NCBI GenBank assembly: GCA_903854475.1
Contig: CAINWP010000080.1
Coordinates: 1,995 to 65,994 of the forward strand
Direction of reading: 5' to 3'
From: an uncultured Verrucomicrobiota bacterium
GTDB taxonomy: Bacteria; Verrucomicrobiota; Verrucomicrobiia; Limisphaerales; UBA9464
Length of the DNA stretch: 64,000 nucleotides
A program made the translations under genes and the position numbers. The notes beneath the pieces were generated by a model that saw nothing but the letters and a program-made list of their open reading frames with translations, was not told the origin of the DNA and ran no database searches. Shown here piece by piece: positions 10,131-63,211 of the stretch; position 1 is the first letter of the stretch; the number at the start of each line of letters is the position of its first letter.

Positions 10131-10224
10131 CTGTATCTTACTGCAGGAGTCAAATTGTGCAAATCAAGGAAACCGCCCACGGAAACAGTCTCAGATCAAC
10201 GGGTTTCAAATCTGCGGATCGATT

Positions 10225-33583: not shown

Positions 33584-33618
33584 TGGCCCCGTGAAGGTCG
33601 GAACCTGCGAGGCATTGG

Positions 33619-34464: not shown

Positions 34465-34623
34465 AGGTTGGTTGGTCTGAAACATCCTGGTCACATTTAT
34501 TTGACAGCGTGGATTCCCTACTACGGAAAACCCGCTTCGCAATCGGTGCAAGCGATTTTGTTTGAGAACGAATAAAAAGCATCCCAAAGCCTTGATCCCT
34601 CGCAAAACGACAAAATCGTCCGG

Positions 34624-35908: not shown

Positions 35909-36937
35909 ATGTTTGCGCAGATCAAAGGTCTCTTCTCGAACGATATCGGAATCGACCTCGGAACCGCCAACTCCCTCGTCTATGTGAGGGATCAGGGGAT
36001 CGTCTTGCGCGAACCCTCAGTGGTGGCCATTCAAGCTGGGACAACCAATGTTCTCGCAGTCGGTGAAGAGGCCAAGCGCATGCTCGGCCGAACCCCCGGC
36101 AACATTGTCGCTATCCGACCCATGAAAGACGGCGTCATTGCCGACTTTGAGATTACCGAGGCGATGCTTCGGCACTTCATCCAAAAGGTACACCACCGCA
36201 AGCTCATCATGCCGCGAGTGGTTGTAGCGGTCCCTTCAGGCATCACCGAGGTCGAAAAACGGGCCGTGAAGGACTCTGCCACCCACGCCGGGGCCCGCGA
36301 AGTGTATCTTATCGAGCAACCGATGGCTTCGGCCATCGGAGTAGGCCTGCCGGTGCACGAACCCTCAGGTAACATGATTGTCGATATCGGCGGTGGCACC
36401 TGCGAGATCGCGATCATCTCGCTGGCAGGCATCGTCTTCAGTCGCAGCGTCCGCGTGGGCGGCGATGAATTTGACGAAACGATCGTCGCGCACATGAAGC
36501 GCGCTCACAATTTAATGATCGGCGAACGTACCGCCGAGGAGATCAAGATCCGTGTCGGGTCGGCGTTTCCGCTGGACCAGGAATTGACCATGGAGGTGAA
36601 GGGCCGCGACCTCAGTGCGGGCCTCCCCAAGACGGTCCTCATCCGGTCCGAAGAAATCAGAGCCGCCCTGCAAGAACCGCTCTCGAGTATTTTGGAGTCT
36701 GTCCGCATCACGTTAGAACGATGCCCCCCAGAATTGTCCGCCGACTTGGTAGACAAGGGTATCATGATGGCCGGCGGTGGAGCGCTGTTGCGCAATATCG
36801 ACCGCTTGGTCTCTCAAGAAACCGGTCTTCCGGTCCACATCGCCGACGATCCGTTGAGCGCCGTGGCCACGGGCACCGGACGTGTGCTGCAGGAACTCTC
36901 CTTCCTCCGAAGAGTCGCTTCCTCCACGACTACCTGA
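35909..36937 (+). CDS. mreB: Rod shape-determining protein MreB
   Basis: DIGIDLGTANSLVY..., IEQPMASAIG, and VDIGGGTCEIAIISL actin-fold motifs. Confidence 0.97.
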   Translation: MFAQIKGLFSNDIGIDLGTANSLVYVRDQGIVLREPSVVAIQAGTTNVLAVGEEAKRMLGRTPGNIVAIRPMKDGVIADFEITEAMLRHFIQKVHHRKLIMPRVVVAVPSGITEVEKRAVKDSATHAGAREVYLIEQPMASAIGVGLPVHEPSGNMIVDIGGGTCEIAIISLAGIVFSRSVRVGGDEFDETIVAHMKRAHNLMIGERTAEEIKIRVGSAFPLDQELTMEVKGRDLSAGLPKTVLIRSEEIRAALQEPLSSILESVRITLERCPPELSADLVDKGIMMAGGGALLRNIDRLVSQETGLPVHIADDPLSAVATGTGRVLQELSFLRRVASSTTT

Positions 36938-36974
36938 TCTCCCCGGGGTTCGTTCGTCCGTTACTGGATCGAAC

Positions 36975-37781
36975 GTGCTGAAGCGGACCCATTACCTTAC
37001 ATTGGCCGGCGTAGGACTCCTCACGCTGAGCCTACTGAACTTGCCAGCCTCTCTCCAGACGCAGGTCAAGTCGGCCATCGGCGCATCGTTTCTACCTCTC
37101 TTCGGCATCCGGGCCGCCGCAAGTGACGTGCTCGATAGGGCCGGTTATCAGGTCCTCCCCCGCTCCACGTTGATCGACAACGTCTTGCGACTGGAACGCG
37201 AGAACGCCGAACTCCGAGTCTCGGCTCTGCAGGGGGCTGATGCCCTGGCAGAGAATCAGAGACTGCGGATCGCCATCGGAGCGGCTCCACGCGGCCCCTG
37301 GCACCTCAAACTAGCGCGGGTGGTGGGACGAGACCCGACGACCTGGTGGCGCACGATTCAAGTCAATCTGGGATCCCGGGACAACCTGAAACCCGACCAA
37401 GTGGTAATGAGCGGCGCGGGCCTCGTCGGCCGAATCAGCCAAGCAGGCCTGAGTCATTCCCAGGTGGCTCTAGTCGGTGATGCCGAATGTGGGGTGGCCG
37501 TAGTGGTCAAGGAGACCCGCGATCTGGGGATCATCAAACCGGGGCAAACCCTTTCAGGCGATGGCGGGCTGTTGGAAATGACCCTGCTGCAAAACTGCCC
37601 GGGAATTATGGCGGGTCAGGTCGTACTCACCAGCGGCTTGGGCGGGGTCTTCCCGGCGGGTCTCCAGGTCGGGACCATTGTCGACACTCGGAACGAGGAC
37701 GGCAACGTGTTCACCACCGCCCGAGTCCGTCTGGCTGCCAATCTCAACCGACTCGAAGAAGTGTGGGTGCTGCAGCCATGA
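36975..37781 (+). CDS. mreC: Rod shape-determining protein MreC
   Basis: TM segment, coiled coil (ENAELRVSALQGADALAENQRLR), and GLVGRISQAG...VVLTSGLGGVFPAGLQVGTI. The start is set at GTG 36975, after the mreB stop. Confidence 0.85.
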   Translation: MLKRTHYLTLAGVGLLTLSLLNLPASLQTQVKSAIGASFLPLFGIRAAASDVLDRAGYQVLPRSTLIDNVLRLERENAELRVSALQGADALAENQRLRIAIGAAPRGPWHLKLARVVGRDPTTWWRTIQVNLGSRDNLKPDQVVMSGAGLVGRISQAGLSHSQVALVGDAECGVAVVVKETRDLGIIKPGQTLSGDGGLLEMTLLQNCPGIMAGQVVLTSGLGGVFPAGLQVGTIVDTRNEDGNVFTTARVRLAANLNRLEEVWVLQP

Positions 37782-38341
37782 ACCGCTTCACCCTAATCAT
37801 ACTCTTCTTTGTGACGTGGTTGTCGGTGTTCGGTCAGACCCAATTCTCAGGGCTGCGGCAATGGCTCACCGTCCCGATGGCACTCAGTCCGTCGCTCATT
37901 TGTTATGCGGCATTGACCCATGGCTTTGGGATTACCATTTCCCTGGCTATCCTGAGCGGTCTCTGGGCTGATTCGCTGTCCGCCTCACCACTAGGAATTA
38001 GTGTCATGCCCTTGTTTTTGTTGGGGTTTACCCTGCAATTGCAGCGTCACCTCATCCTCCGCGACCAGGGTTTTGCTCAGTTCTGGATCGGACTGGGAGC
38101 CGGGATTGGTGTGCCTCTCCTAACCTTGGGGATGCTTTCCCTGACCGGATCCCAACCCGTGACCGGCAGCTTCACTTTTATCCAACTCCTACTGCTAGGA
38201 TTACTCAACGGCATCGCCTGCCCAGTCTTCTTCCGGATATTCGATTTACTCCACCGGAGCTTCGACTATCGCCCACTGACAACTTCCAGCTTCCGGTCTG
38301 ATCGAGAAACCGTCCGAGGTCGCCAATTTCGCCCCCGTTGA
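37778..38341 (+). CDS. mreD: Rod shape-determining protein MreD (polytopic membrane protein)
   Basis: 187-aa hydrophobic protein in the mreD position. ATG 37778 overlaps the mreC stop (ATGA). Confidence 0.7.
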   Translation: MNRFTLIILFFVTWLSVFGQTQFSGLRQWLTVPMALSPSLICYAALTHGFGITISLAILSGLWADSLSASPLGISVMPLFLLGFTLQLQRHLILRDQGFAQFWIGLGAGIGVPLLTLGMLSLTGSQPVTGSFTFIQLLLLGLLNGIACPVFFRIFDLLHRSFDYRPLTTSSFRSDRETVRGRQFRPR

Positions 38342-38344
38342 ACC

Positions 38345-40375
38345 ATGCTGATCTTCGACCAGTTCAACAAGGGAGAGCGGCCATTGAGATGGGTGGCTGG
38401 CGTGGTGGGTGCAGGTCTGCTGCTGTTGCTCATCGGGCTTCTGCGGGTGCAAATCTTCGGCCACCATCGCTTTGAACAGTCCCTGCAAACCCAGAGTTTC
38501 CAGTCAGTAAGGGTTCCCGCCCTCCGAGGCCGCATCCTCGACCGACAGGGTCGTGAATGCGTGGGGAACGTCCCCCGTTACCGCTTGGACGTATATCTCG
38601 AGACCCTGAGCCGAGACTTCACCCGAGAATACGGCCTGCTGCGCCGCGAGGTCGTGGCGGCACGCGGCGGCACCAATACTGCATCGCCCAAACTCTGGGA
38701 GCGGATGATGTCGAAACTCCGCCATGATCCGCCCCGGGTCTTGGTGCGCCCCGAGGAGAACAGCCTCCTCTGGAGGCAGGCCCGCTACAATGTCATCAGC
38801 AATGTGGTCTCCCGAGTTGCCAACAAGGTTGGTCTACCTCTGACACTGACCGAATCGGAACTGCACCGTCACTGGGCCAACAGTCGCGCCCTGCCGCTGG
38901 CTGTGCTCAAGAAACTGACTCCGCAGCAAGTTTCACTTCTAACCGAGCAATCCTGGTCCATCCGGGGAATTAGCATCGAGCTCCAGGCTGTCCGCAATTA
39001 TCCGCAGGGCCCAATGGCCGCTCACACACTGGGGTATCTGGTTCGCGCGGATGATTTCGAAGGCGAGGAAGGCGAATCGTTCGACTACCGCCTGCGGGAT
39101 TATCGAGGGGCCGCCGGCCTGGAAGCAGCCTTCGACACCGCCCTCCGAGGCATTTCGGGCTCCAAGAGCATCCTCGTCAACAGCGATGGGTATCGGGTGG
39201 GAGAGACCATAACCACTGCGCCAGTGCCCGGGCAGAACCTGATCACCACCCTCGACATCGAGGTCCAGAAGGCAACCGAGTCAGCGCTGTCTGCAGTGAG
39301 CGGCGAGGAACGGGGTGCAGTGGTCGTGCTGGACGTGCGCAATGGGGATGTCCTGGCCGTCGCCAGTGCTCCAAGTTTCGATCCAGGCGAGTGGATCGAT
39401 GGCATCAGCCGGGCCCGCTGGACCAACTACTACGATGTCCCGAAGCGGACGCCCCTAATGAACCGGGCCACCGACGGCGCTTATTCCCCAGGTTCCACCT
39501 TCAAGATTGTGACTGCCTTGGCGGCCTTAGAGAATGGTTTGGACCCCGATCGAGTGCAGATTGTGGAATCAAACCCCTCCAAACCGGGCAAGGGCCTCTT
39601 CCAGCGGGGCAACATCCGGATCGAGGACACCGCCCCCCCAGGTCCCTACGATTTCAGGCGTGCCTTCATCCGCTCCTCCAACGCCTACTTTATTCAACTA
39701 GGACTCGATGCCGGCTACGACCGACTGCTGTCCACCGCCCACCGGTTTCACTTCGGAGAACAGACACGCATCCAACTGCGCCCTACCGAAGAGCGGTCCG
39801 GTTGGATGCCCGAGCCCGCCGAGGCTCGAGCTGAGCGCTGGCCCCAAGGACGACTCGCCAACTTCAGCATCGGCCAAGAGATCACGGTCACCCCATTGCA
39901 ACTCGCCGTGATGGTCGCGGCAGTGGCCAATGGCGGCACGGTTTATTACCCCCGCCTAGTCGACCGCCTCGAATCGGGGGATCCGCTCAGCGAAGAGGTA
40001 CCTAGCTCCATTCGCCCCGGTCAGGTGCGCAGCCGCTTGGAGACCCGCCCCGAATACCTCGCCCGCATCCGAGCCGCCATGCGCGACGACGTTCTGGATC
40101 CCGAAGGCACAGGCACCAGCGCCCGCGTTGCCGATTACACAGTCTGCGGCAAGACAGGAACCGCCGAGATCAAGGGCAACGGGGTGAAGGACAAAGTAAC
40201 CTGGTTTGCCAGCTTCGCCCCCTTCGAATCACCGCGCTATGCCGTGGTCGTGATGGTGGAAAGTGGCGCCTCAGGAGGTCGCACCTGCGGCCCGGTAGCC
40301 CAGAAAATCTACGAACACCTGCGCGCGCGGGATGCGGGGTCCGGCCGGCCTATCGCCCTTAACCCGGCGCCCTAA
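38345..40375 (+). CDS. mrdA: Penicillin-binding protein 2 (elongasome transpeptidase)
   Basis: SxxK motif SPGSTFKIVTA, SSN (IRSSNAYF), and KTGTAE. It lies between mreD and rodA. Confidence 0.92.
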   Translation: MLIFDQFNKGERPLRWVAGVVGAGLLLLLIGLLRVQIFGHHRFEQSLQTQSFQSVRVPALRGRILDRQGRECVGNVPRYRLDVYLETLSRDFTREYGLLRREVVAARGGTNTASPKLWERMMSKLRHDPPRVLVRPEENSLLWRQARYNVISNVVSRVANKVGLPLTLTESELHRHWANSRALPLAVLKKLTPQQVSLLTEQSWSIRGISIELQAVRNYPQGPMAAHTLGYLVRADDFEGEEGESFDYRLRDYRGAAGLEAAFDTALRGISGSKSILVNSDGYRVGETITTAPVPGQNLITTLDIEVQKATESALSAVSGEERGAVVVLDVRNGDVLAVASAPSFDPGEWIDGISRARWTNYYDVPKRTPLMNRATDGAYSPGSTFKIVTALAALENGLDPDRVQIVESNPSKPGKGLFQRGNIRIEDTAPPGPYDFRRAFIRSSNAYFIQLGLDAGYDRLLSTAHRFHFGEQTRIQLRPTEERSGWMPEPAEARAERWPQGRLANFSIGQEITVTPLQLAVMVAAVANGGTVYYPRLVDRLESGDPLSEEVPSSIRPGQVRSRLETRPEYLARIRAAMRDDVLDPEGTGTSARVADYTVCGKTGTAEIKGNGVKDKVTWFASFAPFESPRYAVVVMVESGASGGRTCGPVAQKIYEHLRARDAGSGRPIALNPAP

Positions 40376-40378
40376 ACC

Positions 40379-41590
40379 ATGACCCCGCTCTCCCTCCAGA
40401 ATCGCCGTGCCGAGGCAGACATCTTGTGGCCCCTTTGGCTCTCGGTGTTGGGTCTGATGATCATCAGCGCGATGTTCATATTCAGCACCACCGGCGGCAC
40501 CGAGATAACGCGCGGTGTCCCGTGGTACCTATGGACGGCTACCCGCCAGGTGATCGCCTTTGGCATTGGTCTCTTCGTGGTTCTCGGACTCAGTCTGGTG
40601 GACTACAGCCGAATGGCACGGTGGGCCATGGTTGGCTACTGGGTATCCATCGCCCTGCTCATGGCAGTCCATGTCCTAGGCACCTCCCGCAACGGCGCGC
40701 GGCGTTGGCTGGATCTGGGCCCGATCCAATTCCAGCCGAGCGAATTGGCCAAACTGACTTTCCTGTTCGCCATGGCTAACTTTTTGGCGCGCCCCTCTTC
40801 GGAGCTCCGCTCGCCCAGCGTCTTCCTGAAGGCCCTCATGCTCACACTTCTACCACTGGGCCTAATCCTTAAACAACCCGATCTGGGTTCATCCCTCGTC
40901 TTTCTGCCCATCACTCTGGTCATGATGCTGGTAGCTGGGGTTCCACAGCGCTTTGTGATCAAGCTTTTGGGGGGAGCGTTCCTCATCGTCAGCCTGATCG
41001 CCATCGACATCTTCATTGCACCCGAGAACTGGCGACTCATCCGCCTTCAAGACTATCAGCGCGAACGGTTGCTGGTTTATTTCAACGCCGATTTTGCCCC
41101 AGCTTCAGCCACCCCAGAACAACGCCAGAGGGCCGCACAGCGCAAGCGGCAGATGTCTTGGAATGTAGAGCAGGCGCTCATCTCAGTCGGCTCAGGCGGT
41201 TTCACTGGCAAAGGGTGGCGCGAGGGCACTCAGCACCGTCTGGGTTACCTGCCCCGACTGGGCGCCCACAATGACTTCATCTTCTCGGTCATCGCCGAGG
41301 AGCGTGGCTTCATCGGAAGCGTCGCCGTCGTCACCCTCTACGGCATCGTCCTATTCAGCGGCATCAAGACCGCTGGAGAATCACGCGACCGGCTCGGGCG
41401 CCTACTGGCCGTCGGCATCGTTACCCTCTTCTTCACACACATCTTCGTGAACATCGGCATGAACATCAAACTGATGCCGGTCACGGGCATTCCACTGCCC
41501 CTGCTCAGTGCAGGCGGAACCTCAGTGCTCTGCTCACTGATCGCGGTCGGTGTTCTTCAAAACATCCATTTGTACCGGAAACGGTACTAA
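40379..41590 (+). CDS. rodA: Rod shape-determining protein RodA (SEDS family)
   Basis: FtsW/RodA/SpoVE layout with FQPSELAKL, HNDFIFSVIAEERGF and PLPLLSAGGTS. Confidence 0.92.
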   Translation: MTPLSLQNRRAEADILWPLWLSVLGLMIISAMFIFSTTGGTEITRGVPWYLWTATRQVIAFGIGLFVVLGLSLVDYSRMARWAMVGYWVSIALLMAVHVLGTSRNGARRWLDLGPIQFQPSELAKLTFLFAMANFLARPSSELRSPSVFLKALMLTLLPLGLILKQPDLGSSLVFLPITLVMMLVAGVPQRFVIKLLGGAFLIVSLIAIDIFIAPENWRLIRLQDYQRERLLVYFNADFAPASATPEQRQRAAQRKRQMSWNVEQALISVGSGGFTGKGWREGTQHRLGYLPRLGAHNDFIFSVIAEERGFIGSVAVVTLYGIVLFSGIKTAGESRDRLGRLLAVGIVTLFFTHIFVNIGMNIKLMPVTGIPLPLLSAGGTSVLCSLIAVGVLQNIHLYRKRY

Positions 41591-41593
41591 AAC

Positions 41594-43597
41594 TTGAATC
41601 CTACAGACATGAGTCAACAGACATTCAAACGCGGCAAGGTACCGATGCGTTTCAAGCCCACCAGAGGAATCGGCTCGCCGAACCTCAACCGATCTGCTGC
41701 CAACGCCCGCATGGAGGCCATCGGCGAGAAAACCGTTGAAGAACGGGTCTTCGACATCCGGCGTCACGAGTCGGAAATCCGGCGCGCTGAAAACCGTGCG
41801 GCCGGACTCCCCGAGGACACCATCGACGCCCCGGAGGTCAATCTGAGCAAGAACGGCCGGGACCAGACCTACCGCTCCCCCGATCTCTCTCGCCCCGAGG
41901 AGGCGCACGAAGAGCCGGCCGAACAGGCACCAAAACCACCTCGCGAACCTAAGGGTCTTATGGAAAAAGCGCGGGCCGCGGTCAAAGAGGTGGTCAAGAA
42001 GGTCAAACAACTCATCCGACCCGAGGAAAAGATCATCAAGGAAGTGGTGATTAACGCCGAACCTCTTGAAACCCGCGTCGCGGTGCTAGAGGAGAGCAAA
42101 CTGGAAGACCTCACGGTCGAACGAACCGCCGATGACCGCCTCGTTGGCTCAATCTATAAGGGCAAGGTAAAGAACCTCGAAGATGGACTGAAGGCTGCCT
42201 TCGTGGACATCGGCTTCGAGAAAAACGCCTTCCTCCATTACTGGGATATTATTCCCAACACATTCGATTCCAGCGTTGAGATCGTGGAACGCGATGACAC
42301 GGGCAAATCTCGCCGGAAGGAAAAACCCAAGATCACCCAGAAGGATGTCCCCCGACTCTTCCCGCCAGGAAGCGAGATCATCATCCAGGTGACCAAGGGA
42401 CCGATCGGCACCAAGGGACCGCGCGTCACGACCAACCTTTCCTTGCCCGGCCGCTATCTTGTCCTGCTACCCAATTCCGACCAGTCGGGTATCAGCCGCA
42501 AGATCGAGAACGTGGAGGAGCGCCAGCGCCTCAAAAAAATCGTCCGCGAACTGACCATTCCCGAGGGCATGGGAGTCATCATCCGCACCGCCGGTGAAGA
42601 AAAGCGCAAGGCGTACTTCGTTCGTGATCTCGCCCTGCTGCTGGAGGAGTGGAAGCTCATCCAAGAACGAATTAAGAGCCAGCCGATGGCCTCCTGCGTT
42701 TATCAAGAGCCCGACCTCATCGAACGCACTGTCCGCGACTTCCTCACCGAAGACGTCGACAAGATCGTTATCGACGACCTCAAGAAGTTCGAATCTATCC
42801 GCGACAGCATTAAGCGCATCAGCCCCCGTTCTGTGCGCAAGGTGCACTTCTACAACGAGGCGGAGCCGCTGTTCGACCGCTACAACATCACCCGCCAACT
42901 CGAGGCTGCTTTCAGCCGCCAGGTGAACCTCAAGAGCGGCGGTTACCTCATCATCGACGAAACCGAAGCCCTCGTGGCTATCGACGTAAACACCGGCAAG
43001 CACAAGCAGGCCGGCACCAAGGATCACGACGCGACGATTCTCAAAGTGAACCAGGACGCCGCCGATGAAATCGCCCGCCAACTCCGCCTGCGGAACATGG
43101 GCGGCATCATCGTCCTAGACTTCATCGACATGAAGTCGCGCCGCGACCAGCAGTCCATTTATCAGCGGATGAAGGACAACCTCAAACGGGACAAGGCCAA
43201 GACACACGTCCTGCCTCTCTCGCAGCTCGGGCTCATGGAAATGACCCGCCAGCGCCAGACGGAGAGCGTTCGTTCATCGCTCTACGACGACTGCGAGCAC
43301 TGCACAGGCCGTGGCGTCATCAAGAGCGCCGAGACCATGAGTGTCGAAATCCAGCGCAAGCTGACCCAGATCCTCAAAGGCCGCCCACGTGACGACGGCG
43401 ATTTCCAGGTCAAGATTGTCTGCAACCCCCGCGTCCTCGATCGCTTGCGGACCCGCGACGAGAAGCTGCTCATCGAGTTGGAGAAGAAATTCTTCGCCAA
43501 ACTCAGCTTCCGCCCGGACCCCACCTATCACAATGAGGAGTGGAAGATCTTCAACGCCATGAACAACGACGAGTTGGCCAAGTCACGAAACAAGTAG
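41594..43597 (+). CDS. Ribonuclease E/G family protein with about 140-aa charged N-terminal extension
   Basis: S1 domain LVGSIYKGKVKNLEDGLKAAFVDIGFEKNAFLH, then IIDETEALVAIDVNTGK, GIIVLDFIDM and a Zn-link CEHCTGRG. Confidence 0.9.
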   Translation: MNPTDMSQQTFKRGKVPMRFKPTRGIGSPNLNRSAANARMEAIGEKTVEERVFDIRRHESEIRRAENRAAGLPEDTIDAPEVNLSKNGRDQTYRSPDLSRPEEAHEEPAEQAPKPPREPKGLMEKARAAVKEVVKKVKQLIRPEEKIIKEVVINAEPLETRVAVLEESKLEDLTVERTADDRLVGSIYKGKVKNLEDGLKAAFVDIGFEKNAFLHYWDIIPNTFDSSVEIVERDDTGKSRRKEKPKITQKDVPRLFPPGSEIIIQVTKGPIGTKGPRVTTNLSLPGRYLVLLPNSDQSGISRKIENVEERQRLKKIVRELTIPEGMGVIIRTAGEEKRKAYFVRDLALLLEEWKLIQERIKSQPMASCVYQEPDLIERTVRDFLTEDVDKIVIDDLKKFESIRDSIKRISPRSVRKVHFYNEAEPLFDRYNITRQLEAAFSRQVNLKSGGYLIIDETEALVAIDVNTGKHKQAGTKDHDATILKVNQDAADEIARQLRLRNMGGIIVLDFIDMKSRRDQQSIYQRMKDNLKRDKAKTHVLPLSQLGLMEMTRQRQTESVRSSLYDDCEHCTGRGVIKSAETMSVEIQRKLTQILKGRPRDDGDFQVKIVCNPRVLDRLRTRDEKLLIELEKKFFAKLSFRPDPTYHNEEWKIFNAMNNDELAKSRNK

Positions 43598-53023: not shown

Positions 53024-53533
53024 ATGACCGCCGCAGGTGCCATCACAGAAATCGGAGCCGCTAGGACTGGAGCAACTCCAGCGTCCCAGCGTCCCCGTTT
53101 CACCTGGCGCTACGACCACAAGCTCGATTCTCAAGGCCGGGTTCCATTGCCAGCCAAATGGCGACCTGAAGATCCCTCCAGTTTGTCCCTTATGGCGGTG
53201 ATGATCCGACACCCGTCGGAGGCAGAGTTCGTGATGGTGCTGCCGGTCGAACAATTCGAGCGCTTCAGCAACCCCATCTGCCAGGGTGACTTCACTGACC
53301 CGCTGAGACTCGCCGAGAGGCACGACTATGTGGATCGGATCATCGAACTAGAACTCGACAGCGCCGGGCGGATTTGTTTGCCCAAAGAAATGCGCGGAGC
53401 CGCAGGCCTGACCGAGGACGTTCTTTTCGTCGGATGCATCGATCGATTCGAGATGTGGAACCCTGAATCCTATCAGATGGCACGCCTCTCTGAACGGCTC
53501 ATCAAAAAGGTCCAGAATCCCCAAAAGACATGA
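53024..53533 (+). CDS. mraZ: Division/cell wall cluster transcriptional regulator MraZ
   Basis: Two SpoVT-AbrB-like halves: YDHKLDSQGRVPLPAKWR and LELDSAGRICLPKEMR. It is the first gene of the dcw cluster and carries about 25 extra N-terminal residues. Confidence 0.85.
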   Translation: MTAAGAITEIGAARTGATPASQRPRFTWRYDHKLDSQGRVPLPAKWRPEDPSSLSLMAVMIRHPSEAEFVMVLPVEQFERFSNPICQGDFTDPLRLAERHDYVDRIIELELDSAGRICLPKEMRGAAGLTEDVLFVGCIDRFEMWNPESYQMARLSERLIKKVQNPQKT

Positions 53534-53925
53534 AGCTGTTGGCACTGCTCAACCCGCGATCCTGGTTTTCTTCGGGCCAACGCGAACCGCTCTCCTCCCT
53601 TCAACAAACCTCTGGCTTGGGGGGCGTCCCACTCGGCTCCGTCAAAGCACTACCGGAGACACTCGTTCGCCGCTTTTTCTCCTTTGAGAATCGGCGAACA
53701 CCGAACCGAAATCTCATTCAAGGAGAGCTCCAACTGCCTGCCGTGACACCTATGCGCAACGACCTCATCGAGGACGACGTGGAACTGGTGCGCCGCCGTC
53801 GAGAAACTCGTCTCCTGCACGAGACCCGCCCGCCCGGAGCCGGCGGAACCCACGATCCTGAACTGGCCGTCAACCGCCTGCGAAACCGGGCACCGGAGAC
53901 CAGTCGCCTGGTTGCGCGGGACTGA
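53530..53925 (+). CDS. Hypothetical protein inserted between mraZ and rsmH
   Basis: 131-aa ORF whose ATG overlaps the mraZ stop (ATGA). Arg-rich, no family recognised. Confidence 0.45.
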   Translation: MKLLALLNPRSWFSSGQREPLSSLQQTSGLGGVPLGSVKALPETLVRRFFSFENRRTPNRNLIQGELQLPAVTPMRNDLIEDDVELVRRRRETRLLHETRPPGAGGTHDPELAVNRLRNRAPETSRLVARD

Positions 53926-55279: not shown

Positions 55280-57460
55280 ATGAACAACCCGTCCACCCCC
55301 GACAAGACATTGACCGGACTGACCGTCCTGTTCTGTGTCGTGTTCATTGGGTTGGCCGGAAGATTGGTGTACATTCAGGGCGTTCGTCCCGATTCCCCCC
55401 GCTACACCCTGGGCGCCTCTCCCGCCCGCACCACTTACATTCCGGCACCCCGTGGTGAGTTGCTCGATCGTCGCGGTGAGCGCCTGACGTATTCACAGTT
55501 CACCTACAACCTTCGCGCCAACCCGGTGGTGATCAGCAACCAAGCCACACACTTGGCCGCCCTGCTCTCACCGCTGCTGTCCATTCCGGCGACAGTCCTC
55601 GAGGACCGCCTCAGCATCCGAGCCGAACTGCGCTGGAAAGCCGATGCCAGCACCAACTCCGCGGGTCTGGTCGCTACCCAATGGGTGCAGGTGCTGCACA
55701 CCAACCAAAGTGTTCTGGTGGCCTCCAACCTGTCTTTTGTGGACTGGACCCGGATCCACACCAATTTGAAGGTGTTCCGGTCTCCAGAGGAACGCCAACT
55801 GCTGGCAGCTTCGGCCGCAGTGGCCCATCGACGAACCAACAGTCCTCCCATCGCTTGGTGGGACTTACCGAGACGCTATCGCGTTCGCAAGGAGATCGCC
55901 CGGGACAACCGGGAAATCAACCTAGCGATGAAGCGGATCCAACCGCAATTGAGGGAGGTTCGCGAAAACGGAATCACTGCCGAAATTATGGAACGGCGCG
56001 TGATGCCGCACGGCGAACTCGCCTTACCTATCTTAGGCACCACGACCAACGGGGTAATCCCGATTGTGGAATACCGGACAGCCACCAACCGCATTCGCGT
56101 CCGCACCCGAGAATTGCCCCCCGAGATCCATGGCGCCGACGGCATCGAGCGGCAGTTCAACGATGAGCTCCAGGGGGTTGCTGGTCAGGCGATTATTCGA
56201 CGAGGCAAAGGCCGTGAATTGGCTGGTACCCGAGAACTGGACCTAGCTCCGCAACCGGGTGCGAATGTCCGACTGACCATCGACGCCAATCTCCAATACG
56301 TCGCTGAGAACGCGTTGCGCCAAGGGATGGCCAAGCTGAAGCCCAACTGGATGTCGGCCATCTTGGTGCGCCCATCGACCGGTGAGATTCTGGCCCTGGC
56401 CAACGCCACGGACCCAGACTACTCACCGGCGCGACAACCTGGCTTACCGACACAGGCCAGCGGACCAAGCAAACCCCAGCATCGCAACCATGCCGTGTCT
56501 GAATTGGTCGAGCCTGGATCTACTTTCAAGCTAGTCACCTACTCGGCCGCCCTCGAATCCCTTCCCGGTCGAAACCTCTCCCCCAGCTCTCTGATCGACT
56601 GCGAGGGCGGATCCTGGCGCCCCCCTGCTGGACGCAAGAAACCCATCGCTGATGCGCGTGGCCACAAGCTGCACACGGTCACCCTGGAAGAAGCCTTCGC
56701 CGCATCCTCCAATGTCGGCGCAGCCAAGCTCGGATACGCCCTTTGGGATTCTGCTGCGCCGCCGCGAGCCACTGCGTTGGTCAAGTACGCTGAGGCCTAC
56801 GGATTCACCCGACGGACCGGTATCCTCTGCGGAGGAGAGCCCAACACGCGAATCCCGGCCTGGGACGGCCTCGGCACTCAGCTCATCCTTTCTTACGGTT
56901 ACGGCATCTACGCGACACCACTTCAGATCACCATGGCCTATGCTGCCGTGGCCAACGACGGCATCCTCATGGAACCCATGCTGGTAAAGTCCGTGGAGAG
57001 TCCCTCGGGAAGCGTCATTCGCAATCTTGCCCCGCGTCAGGTCGGCAGGGTGGTACGCTCCGACACAGCCAAGCAACTGGTACAACTCCTGACGGCAGTA
57101 GTGAGCTCCAAAGGTACAGGCAAGGATGCCGCCCTCAGTGAGTATACCGTCGCCGGCAAGACTGGCACGGCCAACAAGATGACCCAGGCCCACATGGCTG
57201 CCGGCGTCACCGCCCATTTCAGCACCTTTGTTGGATTCCTTCCCGCTGAGAACCCTCAGATCTGCCTGCTGGTCTGCGCCGACGAACCCACCGGGTCGGA
57301 CGGTCGAGCCGCCTATGGAGCCGCCTGTGTACCGGTCTTCAAGGAGATCGCCCGCGAGGCTGCAAGCTATCTGACAATTCCTCCGTCACCCGTCCTGGCA
57401 GCCCATGAAGCGGCCACCGATCGCCCCCCCTCCCGCGTCACTGACCATGCTGACCGCTGA
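55280..57460 (+). CDS. ftsI: Penicillin-binding protein, FtsI/PBP3-type divisome transpeptidase
   Basis: N-terminal TM segment, SxxK EPGSTFKLVTY, SSN (FAASSNVG), and KTGTAN. Confidence 0.9.
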   Translation: MNNPSTPDKTLTGLTVLFCVVFIGLAGRLVYIQGVRPDSPRYTLGASPARTTYIPAPRGELLDRRGERLTYSQFTYNLRANPVVISNQATHLAALLSPLLSIPATVLEDRLSIRAELRWKADASTNSAGLVATQWVQVLHTNQSVLVASNLSFVDWTRIHTNLKVFRSPEERQLLAASAAVAHRRTNSPPIAWWDLPRRYRVRKEIARDNREINLAMKRIQPQLREVRENGITAEIMERRVMPHGELALPILGTTTNGVIPIVEYRTATNRIRVRTRELPPEIHGADGIERQFNDELQGVAGQAIIRRGKGRELAGTRELDLAPQPGANVRLTIDANLQYVAENALRQGMAKLKPNWMSAILVRPSTGEILALANATDPDYSPARQPGLPTQASGPSKPQHRNHAVSELVEPGSTFKLVTYSAALESLPGRNLSPSSLIDCEGGSWRPPAGRKKPIADARGHKLHTVTLEEAFAASSNVGAAKLGYALWDSAAPPRATALVKYAEAYGFTRRTGILCGGEPNTRIPAWDGLGTQLILSYGYGIYATPLQITMAYAAVANDGILMEPMLVKSVESPSGSVIRNLAPRQVGRVVRSDTAKQLVQLLTAVVSSKGTGKDAALSEYTVAGKTGTANKMTQAHMAAGVTAHFSTFVGFLPAENPQICLLVCADEPTGSDGRAAYGAACVPVFKEIAREAASYLTIPPSPVLAAHEAATDRPPSRVTDHADR

Positions 57461-57464
57461 ACTC

Positions 57465-58637
57465 ATGCTCCAGACTGCGCCCGCGTCTTTGACCGAGGAT
57501 ACGGCCCCCGTGGTGTGTCGGCCGAGGCACCCGGCCCTCGGCACCAGCGAGACGACGCGGTTTCGCCGATCCAGCCCGTCCCGGAATGTTGCCTCGCCGC
57601 AATCCCTTTCAGAACCGCTTCAGATTTCTGTCCAGGACCATCCCCTGCAGCGTCTGGATTTATGCAAGATCGCCTGTGAGGGACGAGTCTCAGCGGCCAC
57701 CGCCTCTTTCGTCCACGCCTTACTTAGCGGGGTGGGGCGTCGACCGGCCCTGCTCACTCCAGAAGGAGGGTTCATGGCGGGCCGACTCTTCCCTCAACGA
57801 CCCAAGATCAGCGAAGCCTCCGAATGGGAGCGCCTCTTAGCTACCCATGTCCGATCGGGTGGAGACTGCCTGATCATTGAAGAAGACTCCGAAATTCGAG
57901 AACTGCTCGCTGGCATTTCACCGCGGTCGCACCTCAAGCCACCGACCTCTCCACGCGCCTGGATTCATGCACAGGCGCTGCATTGGCGCGGCAGCCGCCT
58001 GCAGGTATTCTCCCACGACGGCACCACAAGGACCGCACACCTGCCACTGGTTGGGGGTTCGAATCTCCTGGCTCTTGATCTAGCGCTCAACCGAGTCATC
58101 CATGCGGGCTGCTGCCCAACACGGACCCTCGCCACGCTCCCCTCTCTGGACCCCCCGACCGGGCTTCTCGAACCTGTCCACGCCGGACAACCGTATGGCG
58201 TCTTCGTGGACCGAGCCTGCTGCGCCGCCGATCTGGCCGAACTCCTGGCCGAGGCTCGCACACTGTCCGGGCGTCGCATCGTGCTCGTAACCGGCATCCA
58301 CGGCAGTTCAACCCCTCAAGAACGACGAGCCTTGGGGGCAGCAGCAGCGGCGGCGGACGAAGTGATCTTCACCAGCGACAATCCACGTCATGTGCCGGTT
58401 GCCTCCATCCTGAGAGACCTCCAAGCGGGTCTCGGTGGTGGAGCTCTCGAAGAACCTGACCGTCACACCGCCATCGCAACCGCTGTCCGTCGGGCCAAAT
58501 CGGACGACCTGGTGCTCATCGCGGGCAAGGGAAGTCGACCTTTTCAAGAGCTGGGCAGTGCCGTCATCCCCTGGGACGACCGACTGCATGCTCGGGATGC
58601 ATTGGCTGGGCGCGGCTGGGTGGGAGATTCACTATGA
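57465..58637 (+). CDS. murE: MurE-like Mur ligase family protein with degenerate catalytic motifs
   Basis: It keeps MurE-type C-terminal features (FTSDNPRHV, PDRHTAIATAV, LIAGKG) and occupies the murE position. However, it has IACEGRVSAAT where GTNGKTT is expected, DRACCAADL for DYAHTPDAL, and TGIHGSSTPQERR for GCGGDRDKGKR. The N-terminal ~70 aa are low complexity. Alternative starts are at 57405 and 57447. Confidence 0.7.
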   Translation: MLQTAPASLTEDTAPVVCRPRHPALGTSETTRFRRSSPSRNVASPQSLSEPLQISVQDHPLQRLDLCKIACEGRVSAATASFVHALLSGVGRRPALLTPEGGFMAGRLFPQRPKISEASEWERLLATHVRSGGDCLIIEEDSEIRELLAGISPRSHLKPPTSPRAWIHAQALHWRGSRLQVFSHDGTTRTAHLPLVGGSNLLALDLALNRVIHAGCCPTRTLATLPSLDPPTGLLEPVHAGQPYGVFVDRACCAADLAELLAEARTLSGRRIVLVTGIHGSSTPQERRALGAAAAAADEVIFTSDNPRHVPVASILRDLQAGLGGGALEEPDRHTAIATAVRRAKSDDLVLIAGKGSRPFQELGSAVIPWDDRLHARDALAGRGWVGDSL

Positions 58638-59386
58638 CATCCCTACCAAAACCTCATCTTCTCGGCGTCTTGGCCGGCCTGTTTCTGGCCTCAGGCCTCA
58701 TCATTTCTACCACACTCCTGACACGGACCTGGCTTAAAGTGGCCGATGCCGAATCGATATCCGTCACCGGATCGGCCCGTCGCAACGTGAGTTCTGACTT
58801 GGTCGTCTGGCGTGGTTCTCTCACCGTCGAAAGCCCCACTCTTCTGGCCTCGCAAGGAGTCCTCAGTCAACACGAGAGCTTCACACGCAAGTTCCTCACC
58901 GCCCAGGGCGTCACCAACGCCCAGTTCCATCCGGTCGCCATCCAGCGCATCCAAGTCCGCTCCAGCAAACAAACCAGCGAGGCTGACAGCGAGACTGAAA
59001 GTCCCACGACCCGATTCCGCCTCAGCCGCACCATTGAGGTCCGCTCCGGTGACATCGATGCCGTCCTGAGCATGGATGCCCAGACATCTGAACTGGTCAA
59101 TCAAGGCATTGAATTCGCCTCATCTACTCCGGAATTCATTTGGACCAAGGCCGGTGAAGCCAAAATTGAAATGTTGGCCGATGCAGCCCGCGATGCCCGC
59201 GCCCGAGCCGAGCAAATCGTCTCCCAAGGCGGACGATCGATCGCCCGGATGCGCTCTGCCAAAATGGGCGTTTTCCAAGTGACCCCGCTGTATTCGACCC
59301 AGAACACCTGGGACGGAATGAACGACACCACCTCCCGAGAAAAGACTGTCACCGCAGTAGTGAATGCGAGCTACGCACTGCAATAA
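58634..59386 (+). CDS. SIMPL (DUF541) domain-containing protein
   Basis: N-terminal TM/signal segment, ISVTGSARRNVSSDLVVW..., and a C-terminal LADAARDARARAEQIVSQGG...MGVFQV pattern typical of SIMPL/26-kDa periplasmic proteins. ATGA overlap with murE. Confidence 0.7.
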   Translation: MTSLPKPHLLGVLAGLFLASGLIISTTLLTRTWLKVADAESISVTGSARRNVSSDLVVWRGSLTVESPTLLASQGVLSQHESFTRKFLTAQGVTNAQFHPVAIQRIQVRSSKQTSEADSETESPTTRFRLSRTIEVRSGDIDAVLSMDAQTSELVNQGIEFASSTPEFIWTKAGEAKIEMLADAARDARARAEQIVSQGGRSIARMRSAKMGVFQVTPLYSTQNTWDGMNDTTSREKTVTAVVNASYALQ

Positions 59387-60777
59387 TGGAACCGGTGACA
59401 CTCCAATTCATCGCTGAAGCATCCAAGGGGACCTTGCATCCCCACGATACCGGCTGTGTTAGGGTTTCCGGGGTTTGTACCGACTCGCGTCGCCTTCGGG
59501 CTGGCAATGTGTTCCTAGCCTTGTGCGGCGAACGATTTGACGGGCACGATTTCCTCAAAGATCCCGGGCTCGAAAAAGTTTCGGCCGTCGTGGTCTCCCA
59601 AAATCGACTCACGGACGTTCCGAAAGGAATACCGGCCGTCAGCGCACCAAACACACGCGAGGCCCTGAGACACATCGCCGCAGCCTACCGAAACGGCTTC
59701 TCACTGCCCGTGTTCTGCGTGGCCGGATCCAACGGTAAGACCACCACCAAGGAACTGCTTGCAGCCCTGCTCGAAACAACCTTTCCCACCCTCCGGTCCC
59801 AGGCCAGTTTCAATAATGACATTGGGGTCCCCTTGAGCCTTCTGGAGCTAGATGGGTCTCATCGGGCTGCTGTCCTGGAGGCGGGCACCAATCATCCGGG
59901 TGAACTGGCTCCATTGGTGCGCCTGATCGCCCCACGCTACGGTGTGGTACCGCAGATTGGGCGGGAACACCTGGAGCACTTCGGTGACATCGATGGGGTC
60001 ATCGCCGAAGAGAGCGCCCTCGGCGAGGGCTTGCCAACCGACGGCGTTCTATTTCTTAACGGAGACTGCGACGCAGCCCGACCGCTAGCCTCTCGCACTT
60101 CGGCCCGAGTGGTGCGCACCGGATTCAATGCCGGGAACAATTGGCGAGCCCGAATCCTAGACAACGGCTGGAATTCAACCCGCTTCGAGGTCACCGCCCC
60201 GGAGCCCGAGTGGTGCGGCGTATTCGAGATCGCGGTGCCTGGCCGGCACATGGTCTCTAATGCCATTTTAGCCTTGGCGGCCGCCGCCGAACTGCGGGTC
60301 CAACCCGAAGCGGCGCGGAAAGCCTTGTCGTGCTTTTCCGGAGCTAAACAACGTCTCCAATGCTCAGAGCAGCGAGGGATCCGCTGGCTAGACGATACCT
60401 ACAACGCCAACGCCGACTCCACATTAGCTTCGCTACAAACCCTCTCCGAACTGCCCTGCACCGGACGCCGTGTGGCCGTGCTGGGCGACATGGCTGAACT
60501 CGGCGAGCACACCGCCGAAGCGCACCGGGAAGTCGGAGCGGCCGCTCATCGTTTGGGTATCGACCTGCTAGTCTGTATCGGCCACTCGGCCGGCCACACC
60601 GCAGACGGCGCCAGCGGCCTGCGTCAAGTCCTCGCCTTTCCCGAAGTGGAACAGGCTGTCCTCGCGCTCCGCCCACTCCTTCAACCGGGAGACTGTATCT
60701 TAGCCAAGGCTTCTCGCAGCAGCCGACTAGAAAGGCTTTTCGAGGCACTCAAAGACGAACGCATCGAAAACCACTAA
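59386..60777 (+). CDS. murF: UDP-N-acetylmuramoyl-tripeptide--D-alanyl-D-alanine ligase
   Basis: Intact motifs: VAGSNGKTTTKE, FNNDIGVPLSL, EAGTNHPGE, GREHLEHFG, DDTYNANADS, LGDMAELG, and KASRSSRLE. Confidence 0.93.
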   Translation: MEPVTLQFIAEASKGTLHPHDTGCVRVSGVCTDSRRLRAGNVFLALCGERFDGHDFLKDPGLEKVSAVVVSQNRLTDVPKGIPAVSAPNTREALRHIAAAYRNGFSLPVFCVAGSNGKTTTKELLAALLETTFPTLRSQASFNNDIGVPLSLLELDGSHRAAVLEAGTNHPGELAPLVRLIAPRYGVVPQIGREHLEHFGDIDGVIAEESALGEGLPTDGVLFLNGDCDAARPLASRTSARVVRTGFNAGNNWRARILDNGWNSTRFEVTAPEPEWCGVFEIAVPGRHMVSNAILALAAAAELRVQPEAARKALSCFSGAKQRLQCSEQRGIRWLDDTYNANADSTLASLQTLSELPCTGRRVAVLGDMAELGEHTAEAHREVGAAAHRLGIDLLVCIGHSAGHTADGASGLRQVLAFPEVEQAVLALRPLLQPGDCILAKASRSSRLERLFEALKDERIENH

Positions 60778-60783
60778 CCCGGT

Positions 60784-61908
60784 ATGCTCTACAAGCTCTC
60801 AGAATTATTCCCGGTGGTTCCCTGGACGGTGTTCAAGTACGTCACCTTCCGCAGCGCGGGCGCGGCCATCACTGCTCTGCTGCTGAGTTGGCTTCTTGGC
60901 CCGCGGGTGATCGAAGGGCTTCGGAACCTTAAGTTCCGTCAAGACTACCAGCCCAAGGATGTGCGCAATCCCAGCGATGCCACGGCGGCGGCGGCCGACT
61001 TGGCCAAGCGCGGAACACCCACCATGGGTGGTGTTTTAATCCTGCTGGTCTTGGACATCTCCGTGTTTCTTTGGGCCCGACCCAACACATTGGTGCTACT
61101 GACCATGCTTTCGCTGATGGTGTTGGCTTTTTTGGGGTTTTATGACGATTGGCTAAAGGTGTCGCGTCAAAACGCAGCCGGTGCCCAATCCCGGGTAAAA
61201 TGGGTCGTTCAAATCGTGCTCGCACTGGTGGTCGGGGGCTATCTTTGGCAACTCCCCTCCACCCGCACTCTCGTAGCAGACATCCAGATCCCGTTCTTTA
61301 AGGACCCCATCCTCCGATCCGTCCCCTGGATTGGAATCCCGCTAATCGCACTGACCATCATTGGCAGTTCCAACGCGGTGAACCTGACCGATGGCATGGA
61401 TGGGTTAGCCATCGGTTGCACCCTCATCGTGGCCATGGTCATGCTGATCCTGACCTACCTGTCTGACAACGTGAAGTTGGCCACTTACCTTCAGATTCCG
61501 CACGTTCGGGGCGCCAGCGAACTGACGGTGGTTTGCGCGGCCTTCATCGGTGCTTCCCTCGGTTTCCTATGGTTTAACTGTCACCCCGCCGAGGTCTTCA
61601 TGGGCGACACTGGATCGCTGGCTCTAGGCGGTGCACTGGGCATCATGGCCGTCCTGATACACCAACCGCTGGTGCTCCTCATCGCCGGCGGAGTTTTTGT
61701 GGCCGAAGCGCTCAGCGTGATGCTGCAAGTGGGGTGGTTCAAATACACCCGTCACAAGTATGGAGAAGGCCGACGCATCTTTCGGATGGCCCCCCTCCAC
61801 CACCATTTTCAGAAGCAGGGATGGAAGGAATCGAAGATTGTTACCCGCTTTTACATTGCTGGAATTCTGTGCGCTGTGTTGGCGCTGAGCACCCTCAAGA
61901 TCCGATGA
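60784..61908 (+). CDS. mraY: Phospho-N-acetylmuramoyl-pentapeptide-transferase
   Basis: KRGTPTMGGVLIL, NAVNLTDGMDGLA, FMGDTGSLALGG, and APLHHHF. Confidence 0.95.
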   Translation: MLYKLSELFPVVPWTVFKYVTFRSAGAAITALLLSWLLGPRVIEGLRNLKFRQDYQPKDVRNPSDATAAAADLAKRGTPTMGGVLILLVLDISVFLWARPNTLVLLTMLSLMVLAFLGFYDDWLKVSRQNAAGAQSRVKWVVQIVLALVVGGYLWQLPSTRTLVADIQIPFFKDPILRSVPWIGIPLIALTIIGSSNAVNLTDGMDGLAIGCTLIVAMVMLILTYLSDNVKLATYLQIPHVRGASELTVVCAAFIGASLGFLWFNCHPAEVFMGDTGSLALGGALGIMAVLIHQPLVLLIAGGVFVAEALSVMLQVGWFKYTRHKYGEGRRIFRMAPLHHHFQKQGWKESKIVTRFYIAGILCAVLALSTLKIR

Positions 61909-62321
61909 GTGTCCACGCATCAACCCTCATCCACGCCGGTCTTTTCAACCCCACCGGATCACCGATCTTCATCTCGAACCGGATGTTCCTTGATCGCACT
62001 GGTTTCGATTGTTTAATTAGAGCGTCATCAGCGGTACACGGCGGCCTCATCAGGCCCCGGACCCGCATCGCCGCGGCGTTCCGTGCAAACCCAGACTCAT
62101 CTAGCATCCCGTCAGACGCGCCCACAAGTCCTGGCCAACCTGAACCATTTCCCTATTACGGAAGCGGTGAGCATCACCGTTCCTTTCACTCTTCCCAGGT
62201 CCTTTCAATCGCGACCGCACTCACTTTCGTCTCGACCCGGGTGGAGGACCCGGTTCGGTACGGATCCGACAAAACTCAATCCTCGACCCCCGACGTACCG
62301 TCTATCCGCCTAACCCCATGA
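61905..62321 (+). CDS. Hypothetical S/T/P-rich ORF occupying the expected murD slot
   Basis: 138-aa ORF with an ATGA overlap at both ends (mraY stop and LysM gene start). No Mur-ligase motifs, and third-position GC looks lower than in its neighbours. Coding status is uncertain. Confidence 0.35.
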   Translation: MSVHASTLIHAGLFNPTGSPIFISNRMFLDRTGFDCLIRASSAVHGGLIRPRTRIAAAFRANPDSSSIPSDAPTSPGQPEPFPYYGSGEHHRSFHSSQVLSIATALTFVSTRVEDPVRYGSDKTQSSTPDVPSIRLTP

Positions 62322-63211
62322 GCACCCCCAATTCCCCGCTGCTTCCTGGCTCCAAACTGGAACAGGCTGCCAAGAGCAAATCCACCTTCAGCATCGCCGC
62401 CTTCATTTTTAGCGCCCATGTGGCGGTGTTCCTGGTGGTGCTGCTCAACGGCTGCAACAAGGAAAGTTCCGTCAACAACACGGAGCCTCCTGCTGCCACC
62501 AACCAAATTGAACTAGCCGTGCAACCCGGAACCGGGGGTAACGAACCCATCGGCCTTGTTCAACCCCACGGTACAGACACCAACACGGCGGCCATTCCTT
62601 CGGGAGGCGCCGTCACATTCCCGGGCAACCTTACAGCTAACACCAACCCGCCGGTACAACCCATCGCGCCCCCGGAGCTCAGCACCGTCGCTCCAAGCGG
62701 CGCTGCGACCCACGACACCACCGGCGCCGGCTCCGAGTACAAGATTAAGAGCGGCGACATCGCCTACAATATCGCCAAGACCCACGGGGTCTCCCTGAAG
62801 GCCCTCAAGGATGCCAACCCGAGCGTCGACCTAGGGAAGCTGAAGGTGGGCCAGACGATCCAGATTCCTGCTGCCAGCGCATCCGCCGCGGCCGCCGCAA
62901 CCACCAAAGAACCCACCCCTGCGAAAGCGATCTCAAGCCACGAACCCGATACGGCGGGCGCGACCTCATCGTATACGGTCAAAGGAGGCGACACCCTCAG
63001 CAAGATCGCCAAGAAGCACGGAACCACCGCTAAAGCAGTCCGCGCCGCCAACCGCTTGACCAGCGACAAGATCAACGTCGGTCAAAAACTCAAGATTCCC
63101 GGCAAGGGTGCGGCCGCTGAGACTGATGAACCAGCTGCGAAGACCCTGACCGTTCCCGAGCCCACCGCGCCCTTTCCGGCAACCCTGCCGACGCCCGGCA
63201 CAGGCCGCTAA
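62318..63211 (+). CDS. Membrane-anchored or lipoprotein-type protein with two LysM domains
   Basis: N-terminal hydrophobic segment ending LLNGC (possible lipobox), then a P/T/A-rich linker. Two LysM repeats: YKIKSGDIAYNIAKTHGVSLKALKDANP...VGQTIQIP and YTVKGGDTLSKIAKKHGTTAKAVRAANRL...VGQKLKIP. Confidence 0.85.
   Translation: MSTPNSPLLPGSKLEQAAKSKSTFSIAAFIFSAHVAVFLVVLLNGCNKESSVNNTEPPAATNQIELAVQPGTGGNEPIGLVQPHGTDTNTAAIPSGGAVTFPGNLTANTNPPVQPIAPPELSTVAPSGAATHDTTGAGSEYKIKSGDIAYNIAKTHGVSLKALKDANPSVDLGKLKVGQTIQIPAASASAAAAATTKEPTPAKAISSHEPDTAGATSSYTVKGGDTLSKIAKKHGTTAKAVRAANRLTSDKINVGQKLKIPGKGAAAETDEPAAKTLTVPEPTAPFPATLPTPGTGR

Follow-up and report, generated by a model that had tools for sequence, protein, structure and literature searches.

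The division and cell wall (dcw) cluster of an uncultured Verrucomicrobiota bacterium (Limisphaerales, UBA9464) carries, in the murE position between ftsI and murF, an open reading frame (ORF) for a MurE homologue that has lost the catalytic residues of the enzyme and kept its predicted fold, and that is here designated psiMurE. The gene lies in a 64,000-nt stretch of DNA (contig CAINWP010000080.1 of assembly GCA_903854475.1, forward-strand positions 1,995 to 65,994), which as a whole is called the window, and coordinates given below are window positions unless another locus is named. Judged from sequence comparisons and a structural model, residue loss, a retained fold, purifying selection and long-term conservation, the marks of a pseudoenzyme, are all found in psiMurE. 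An earlier interpretation of the same DNA made from the letters alone (the sequence-only reading) had proposed a Mur-ligase pseudoenzyme in the murE slot, and this was borne out by the MurE homology of the protein, by its motif count (0–1 of 7) and by purifying selection across a deep clade. The interpretation favoured here, with somewhat better than even confidence, is that psiMurE descended in situ from the dcw murE and is kept for a non-catalytic role, while ligase activity would be supplied from elsewhere.

Homology was assessed with a hidden Markov model (HMM) built from 89 canonical MurE sequences. In a six-frame search of the whole window, this model matched only the psiMurE ORF (E = 1.5e-48) and murF, and because no MurE pieces were found in any other frame, hidden frameshifts are excluded. 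The ORF contains in-frame ATGs at 57405, 57447 and 57465 and ends at 58637 on the + strand. The stop given by the sequence-only reading stood, but its start at 57465 did not: since all orthologues begin with MLTAE..., which corresponds to ATG 57447 of the window, the latter is most likely the start. The resulting gene (57447–58637, 396 aa) overlaps the ftsI stop by 14 nt.

In a Pfam search, only Mur_ligase_C (PF02875) was detected in psiMurE, with 60.7 bits vs. a gathering threshold of 28.4, at residues 257–376 of the 410-aa ORF; there was no match to PF01225 or PF08245. With TIGR01085 (murE), psiMurE scored 126.5 bits vs. a cut-off of 257.3 and matched only model positions 253–471, and it also remained below threshold with MurE equivalog models (126.6 vs. 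476 and 106.5 vs. 373). The central region gave only 3 bits against positions 95–183 of the canonical MurE HMM. However divergent in sequence, the protein was modeled with confidence by AlphaFold2 from a 49-sequence alignment, with a mean predicted local distance difference test score (pLDDT) of 85, above 90 for residues 60–396 and below 50 for residues 1–59. Consistently, a PDB profile search with psiMurE retrieved 8g6p at 7.9e-33, and the best Foldseek matches of the model in the PDB were the MurE enzymes 8G6P, 2XJA and 7B6P (E about 2e-24, best 1.8e-24), with TMq values of 0.65–0.68 that include the 59 disordered residues. By sequence and predicted fold, psiMurE is a MurE homologue far beyond chance. 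It is a member of the Mur ligase superfamily and a MurE descendant, yet it lacks the features that define the MurE enzyme family, and annotation as MurE is inappropriate.

The catalytic motifs were compared by profile alignment. The P-loop GTNGKTT of canonical MurE is CEGRVSA in psiMurE (57675–57695), so that the P-loop lysine has become arginine, a classic inactivating change, and both glycines of GxxG are gone. DYAHTPDAL is replaced by DRACCAADL, GCGGDRDKGKR by TGIHGSSTPQERR, and GKGHE by GKGSR, while DNPR (residues 311–314), the motif linked to meso-diaminopimelate specificity, DRxxAI and LIAGKG are kept in the C-terminal domain. Further, about 60 central residues are deleted, corresponding to canonical HMM positions ~184–240 with SSH, TNLxxDHLDxH, the lysine that is carbamylated in Mur ligases, and NxDD. 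The glutamate alone survives of EVSSH; in IIEEDSEI (57873–57896), the Mg-binding glutamate is kept and the deletion follows directly downstream. This deletion was present in every member of the short-form family represented by psiMurE. Canonical relatives carried 6–7 of the 7 motifs and the dead forms 0–1, and a search for the P-loop expression GxxGK[TS] found it in none of the dead forms. The P-loop region differs completely between members of the psi family, while the C-terminal tail of psiMurE, IPWDDRLHARDALAGRGWVGDSL (ending …PWDDRLHARDALAGRGWVGD), is invariant.

Three regions can be distinguished along the protein. The N-terminal tail (residues 1–59; 57447–57623) is disordered and rich in S/T/P/L/A/R, and is what is left of the MurE UDP-binding domain after its collapse. 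The remnant of the central (ATPase) domain (57639–58154) is strongly conserved although without catalytic residues, and the Mur ligase C-terminal domain (58155–58634) is the part detected by PF02875. The sequence-only reading had ascribed a shortfall of about 100 residues to loss of the N-terminal domain. The collapse of that domain was confirmed, but the central deletion of ~60 residues contributes as well.

To quantify selection, the ratio of non-synonymous to synonymous substitution rates (dN/dS) was calculated pairwise by the Nei-Gojobori method over 14 orthologous loci. The values were 0.19 for psiMurE, 0.16 for murF, 0.17 for murG, 0.08 for ftsI and 0.05 for mraY. Within psiMurE, the ratio was 0.64 for the N-terminal tail, 0.17 for the central remnant and 0.12 for the C-terminal domain. 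Motifs specific to the family and invariant in it were HPLxRLxL, FPQRP, EWxRLLAxHVRxGG, ALHWRGSR, LEPVxAGQP and the C-terminal PWDDRxHAxxALAxRGWVGD. The dead state is common to lineages whose MurF proteins are only 56–60% identical. Purifying selection thus acts on psiMurE in all members of a deep freshwater clade of Verrucomicrobiota whose relatives include Fontisphaera and Pedosphaera.

The comparisons that the sequence-only reading had proposed as checks all agreed with a dead but maintained protein, namely the TIGR01085 and Pfam profiles (below the family cut-off, with PF02875 alone detected), dN/dS against orthologues (0.19, murF 0.16) and structural comparison with MurE (Foldseek E about 2e-24). 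Each of the motif replacements and retained motifs that it had listed was reproduced by profile alignment, no GxxGK and no MurE pieces in other frames came to light, and the neighbouring murF proved intact, as it had stated (TIGR01143, 349.3 bits vs. a cut-off of 288.6). One of its explanations, recent decay of the gene, was refuted by the dead state shared across lineages with 56–60% MurF identity together with the dN/dS of 0.19.

The family is widespread. The protein database held 28 clusters (90% identity) of psiMurE that were 44–100% identical and 381–432 aa long, with PF02875 alone detected. Their members number in the hundreds and come from lake metagenomes and from metagenome-assembled genomes (MAGs) labelled Verrucomicrobiota, annotated as 'hypothetical protein', 'glutamate ligase domain-containing protein' or, in IMG, 'UDP-N-acetylmuramyl tripeptide synthase'. 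When one genome per GTDB species was scanned, a psiMurE ORF stood between ftsI and murF at 23 loci from about 22 species-level MAGs and was intact in all 23, and the same architecture has been assembled independently from many lakes and projects. Four of the GenBank MAGs with a Pedosphaera-like locus (L007, L010, L022 and L024) are titled 'Akkermansia muciniphila', probably through a taxonomic error, as this name disagrees both with the genes they carry and with their resemblance to Fontisphaera and Pedosphaera relatives.

The search was extended by running full HMMER with a psi family profile against 1.84 billion representatives. About 15 further 50%-identity clusters (396–448 aa) matched end to end, all with the central deletion and with loss of the P-loop, DYAH and GGDRD. 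A word-indexed search with the extended profile added few members, none of them from a named or cultured organism. When metagenomes were scanned with the extended family, whose patterns are partly shared with canonical MurE, 78 of 80 loci turned out to be ordinary murE, and only two, L037 and L038, were informative. The former, an extended-family locus on JGI contig Ga0169931_10001150, has the same synteny as the other psiMurE loci, including the SIMPL gene described below.

The psiMurE gene is embedded in a conserved dcw cluster, which in the window occupies 53–63 kb on the + strand in the order mraZ, a 131-aa ORF, rsmH, an ftsL-like gene, ftsI, psiMurE, a SIMPL gene, murF, mraY and a LysM gene. 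In detail, mraZ (53024–53533) is followed by the 131-aa ORF (orf131, 53530–53925), which overlaps the mraZ stop and has no Pfam match; ftsI (penicillin-binding protein (PBP) 3; 55280–57460) overlaps the psiMurE start; and between psiMurE and the canonical murF (59386–60777) lies a gene for a SIMPL/DUF541 protein (58634–59386) with an N-terminal membrane anchor. Because psiMurE ends in an ATGA overlap with the start of SIMPL, and SIMPL in a TAATG overlap with that of murF, the three genes are, on this arrangement, very probably co-translated, and psiMurE is translationally coupled to ftsI as well. After mraY (60784–61908), a LysM protein gene (62318–63211) directly follows in the place held by murD in canonical relatives. 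Every psiMurE locus long enough to judge had the order mraZ-orf131-rsmH-ftsL-ftsI-psiMurE-SIMPL-murF-mraY-LysM-ftsW-murG-murB-ddl-ftsQ-ftsA.

The slot of psiMurE is filled by a canonical murE with 7/7 motifs in the cultured Fontisphaera persica, in the Baikal MAG SIBF01 and in the P0192 lineage. In these relatives, murD follows mraY (mraY-murD-LysM), murC or an 818-aa MurC-MurB fusion follows murG, and SIMPL is lacking. In contrast with F. persica and SIBF01, no murD was found between mraY and LysM in psiMurE loci (60784–63211 in the window; 13338–20001 in L001/L002), and murC was absent after murG, with a stand-alone 329-aa murB where SIBF01 has the 818-aa fusion. Both murD and murC were missing from the cluster in every psiMurE locus that could be read downstream. 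Among the short-form psiMurE loci examined, L021 alone had no SIMPL gene, and the canonical and full-length-dead relatives tested all lacked it. Given L021, SIMPL as an obligatory partner of psiMurE was rejected as a strict rule.

Dead MurE proteins were also found at full length in other Limisphaerales, in the murE slot of L038 (9935–11452 of that locus) and L117 (6945–8465, protein P0499), and further members are P0500 and P0464. They resemble psiMurE in their position after ftsI and in having 0/7 motifs, but are about 500 aa long, without central deletion and without SIMPL. The order is ftsI-deadMurE-murF in L038, as far as the cluster could be read, and ftsI-deadMurE-murF-mraY-LysM-ftsW-murG-murB-ddl in L117, which, like the psiMurE loci, has neither murD nor murC in the cluster. 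In L117, mraY (9895–11043) was called as two ORFs (270 and 102 aa), while tblastn aligned it in a single frame, and the split probably reflects an in-frame stop or an assembly error.

In a neighbour-joining tree of eight concatenated dcw proteins, the short forms made up one clade (bootstrap 100), while both full-length dead lineages grouped with canonical Limisphaerales (bootstrap 98–100). This grouping suggests that MurE was probably inactivated more than once, independently. Among short forms, a deeper psi subgroup (L021–L026, 432 aa) has a degenerate yet recognisable MurE N-terminal domain and the same central deletion, indicating that the N-terminal domain was lost later, in the subclade of the window. 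In a tree of the C-terminal half of MurE, the psi family was monophyletic (bootstrap 100) on a long branch with no firm placement among MurE sequences, and the orthology of psiMurE to murE is therefore based on synteny.

If psiMurE is a pseudoenzyme as favoured here, it would neither bind ATP productively nor form the acyl-phosphate, and would thus not add meso-diaminopimelate (meso-DAP). Its retention may reflect a non-catalytic function already exercised by the ancestral MurE, most plausibly that of a structural adaptor of a cytoplasmic Mur-enzyme/divisome assembly, in which it could dock with MurF, MraY or FtsI. A DAP-containing ligand might still be accommodated by the partly preserved pocket of its C-terminal domain (the R of KR, TxDNP and GKG). 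The other wall genes (murF, mraY, ftsW, murG, murB, ddl and ftsI) are intact and constrained, and as mreB, mreC, PBP2 and rodA are also present in the window, the organism clearly produces peptidoglycan and UDP-MurNAc-tripeptide must be made. MurE activity, like that of MurC and MurD, would then be encoded elsewhere in the genome, and a canonical murE outside the cluster is the most likely source. That Mur ligase genes can sit elsewhere in these genomes follows from the P0056 lineage, which has a murE with 7/7 motifs yet neither murC nor murD in its cluster.

Several observations weigh against this interpretation. Within the ~20 kb searched per locus and the 64-kb window, none of the psiMurE-bearing genomes yielded a canonical murE, murC or murD; besides psiMurE and murF, no second Mur ligase was found in the window or within about ±10 kb, contig permitting, of 28 loci. 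Candidate canonical MurEs (P0030, the closest canonical one, and P0044, P0056, P0047, P0203, P0192, P0295 and P0504) were all in dcw clusters of other lineages, and the NCBI accessions of ten canonical MurE candidates included none within the accession ranges of psiMurE-bearing MAGs. That murC, murD and MurE catalysis are lost together is explained by disappearance of the entire three-step branch no less naturally than by three separate relocations. The DNPR arginine is not invariant across the psi family, many members having DNPGH or DDPG, which weakens a conserved role in DAP binding. Finally, psiMurE evolves faster than murF (44–45% identity vs. 57–60% for MurF within the psi clade), while canonical MurE evolves slower than MurF (67% vs. 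54–60% among canonical relatives), indicating that constraint has been reduced.

Alternatively, the whole MurC-MurD-MurE branch may have been lost and the tripeptide made by another route, either by an Mpl-type ligase acting on preformed or scavenged L-Ala-D-Glu-DAP or by an undescribed pathway, with the dead MurE serving as a substrate-binding adaptor for MurF. The missing functions are exactly the three tripeptide-building steps, as murB, ddl, murF, mraY and murG stay; the same combination recurs in the separate full-length dead lineage L117; and the searches of the window and of the ~20-kb stretches around 28 loci revealed no other Mur ligase. However, only a small part of each genome is visible, and P0056, with its intact MurE, also lacks murC and murD in the cluster, so absence from the cluster does not equal absence from the genome. 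Dependence on scavenged tripeptide alone for net wall growth would be extreme for abundant free-living lake bacteria, and neither Mpl nor a transporter was found in the small visible part of each genome. This explanation is considered unlikely. Its bolder form, that an abundant free-living freshwater clade and at least one related lineage have no MurC, MurD or MurE activity at all, and that the dead MurE and SIMPL were recruited to feed MurF with a tripeptide from a non-canonical route, is also considered unlikely.

It was also considered whether psiMurE is still an enzyme, either a divergent ligase that relies on a partner ATPase or on a nucleotide site of non-canonical type, or a catalyst of a different reaction on a DAP-containing substrate. 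The strongly conserved new central motifs (HPLxRLxL, FPQRP, EWxRLLAxHVRxGG and ALHWRGSR), the surviving glutamate of EVSSH and a Gly-Arg pair at the position of the P-loop Gly-Lys would fit such an activity. Nevertheless, the replacement of the P-loop lysine by arginine, the loss of both GxxG glycines and the complete divergence of the loop between members, together with deletion of the segment holding the catalytic His and carbamyl-Lys and replacement of DYAH, GGDRD and GKGHE, make a retained activity very improbable.

A decaying pseudogene or neutral relic awaiting deletion would agree with psiMurE being the fastest-evolving protein of the cluster and with its near-neutral N-terminal tail (dN/dS of 0.64). 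But the ORF is intact in 23/23 loci and in hundreds of database members, dN/dS is 0.12–0.17 over the folded part, which is modeled at pLDDT >90, and the dead state persists across lineages with MurF only 56–60% identical. Decay, to which only a slight chance is given, is largely excluded by the conserved loci, the low dN/dS and the invariant family motifs. A sequencing or assembly artefact, in which frameshifts mask a canonical murE, had nothing in its favour, has a negligible chance and was refuted by the lack of MurE segments in other frames and by the same architecture in many independent assemblies.

Compared with canonical MurE (UDP-MurNAc-L-Ala-D-Glu:meso-DAP ligase, TIGR01085, EC 6.3.2.13; PDB 1E8C, 2XJA and 8G6P), psiMurE shares the central and C-terminal fold, the ftsI-murF slot and the DNPR, DRxxAI and AGKG motifs, but it scores at half the family cut-off, lacks PF01225, PF08245, the catalytic motifs and ~60 central residues, and has a disordered N-terminal domain. 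The conceptually nearest analogue is the plant MurE-like protein PAP11 (PDB 8R5O, 8W9Z and 8XZV), a MurE-derived structural subunit of the plastid-encoded RNA polymerase that works outside wall synthesis and is among the sequence and structure matches of psiMurE. PAP11, however, is of independent origin and is a 768–774 aa chain in a transcription complex, while psiMurE is truncated and lies inside a wall/division operon. The PAP11 chains scored below the best bacterial MurE, aligned only with query positions 200–333, a part of the C-terminal half, and ranked 7th or lower by fold; neither the profile nor the Foldseek rankings indicated a specific relationship of psiMurE to the plastid MurE-like clade.

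Mur enzyme complexes have been discussed for MurE-MurF fusions (PMC10214165). Such fusions and multi-enzyme complexes (PDB 8F5D; PMC10214165) support the idea of a structural, complex-forming role of MurE beside MurF, and psiMurE and murF are co-operonic, with translational coupling via SIMPL. In the fusions both halves are active enzymes, whereas psiMurE would be a putative, catalytically dead partner of MurF. No description of a bacterial Mur ligase pseudoenzyme was found in the searchable literature, whose coverage is incomplete, so that this is no proof of novelty; no paper combining 'Mur ligase' and 'pseudoenzyme' was found there, and the MurE-MurF architecture paper held nothing relevant. 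In the searched library, the plant plastid case was the only one found of a MurE-derived protein in a non-wall structural job.

Other features of the window were recorded as well. The 131-aa ORF is conserved in all related loci, with 47–100% identity to the copy in L002. In its position, several canonical relatives have an ORF of 81–181 aa, that of Fontisphaera showing only a weak similarity over 24 residues. FtsI (55280–57460) is 721–726 aa long in the psiMurE clade vs. 633–637 aa in canonical Limisphaerales; its PBP-dimer Pfam match spans 260 residues for a model of 180 positions, which indicates an insertion of roughly 85 residues. A complete elongasome operon (35909–43597) contains mreB, mreC, a probable mreD, PBP2 and rodA, and the next gene encodes RNase G. 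As both this operon and the dcw cluster are present, the organism has the elongation as well as the division machinery for wall synthesis. On the – strand, two adjacent ORFs (31457–34605) together make up a TonB-dependent receptor, with the Plug domain at 33619–34605 and the beta-barrel at 31457–33583, the division being due to either a frameshift or stop in the assembly or a genuine split.

Mur ligases are generally regarded as universally essential and invariant in their catalysis, and they are viewed as targets for antibiotics. In the present case, selection preserves a dead MurE within a bacterial division/wall operon, throughout an entire clade of common lake bacteria. For annotation, the finding is a warning, in that the IMG label 'UDP-N-acetylmuramyl tripeptide synthase' would make pathway reconstructions wrongly score MurE as present. 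For the biology of these bacteria, it implies either that MurE has a second, non-catalytic function in precursor synthesis or the divisome that is worth preserving, or that the stem tripeptide is made differently; in both cases there are consequences for the organisation of the cytoplasmic stages of wall synthesis and for the evolution of peptidoglycan in the PVC superphylum.

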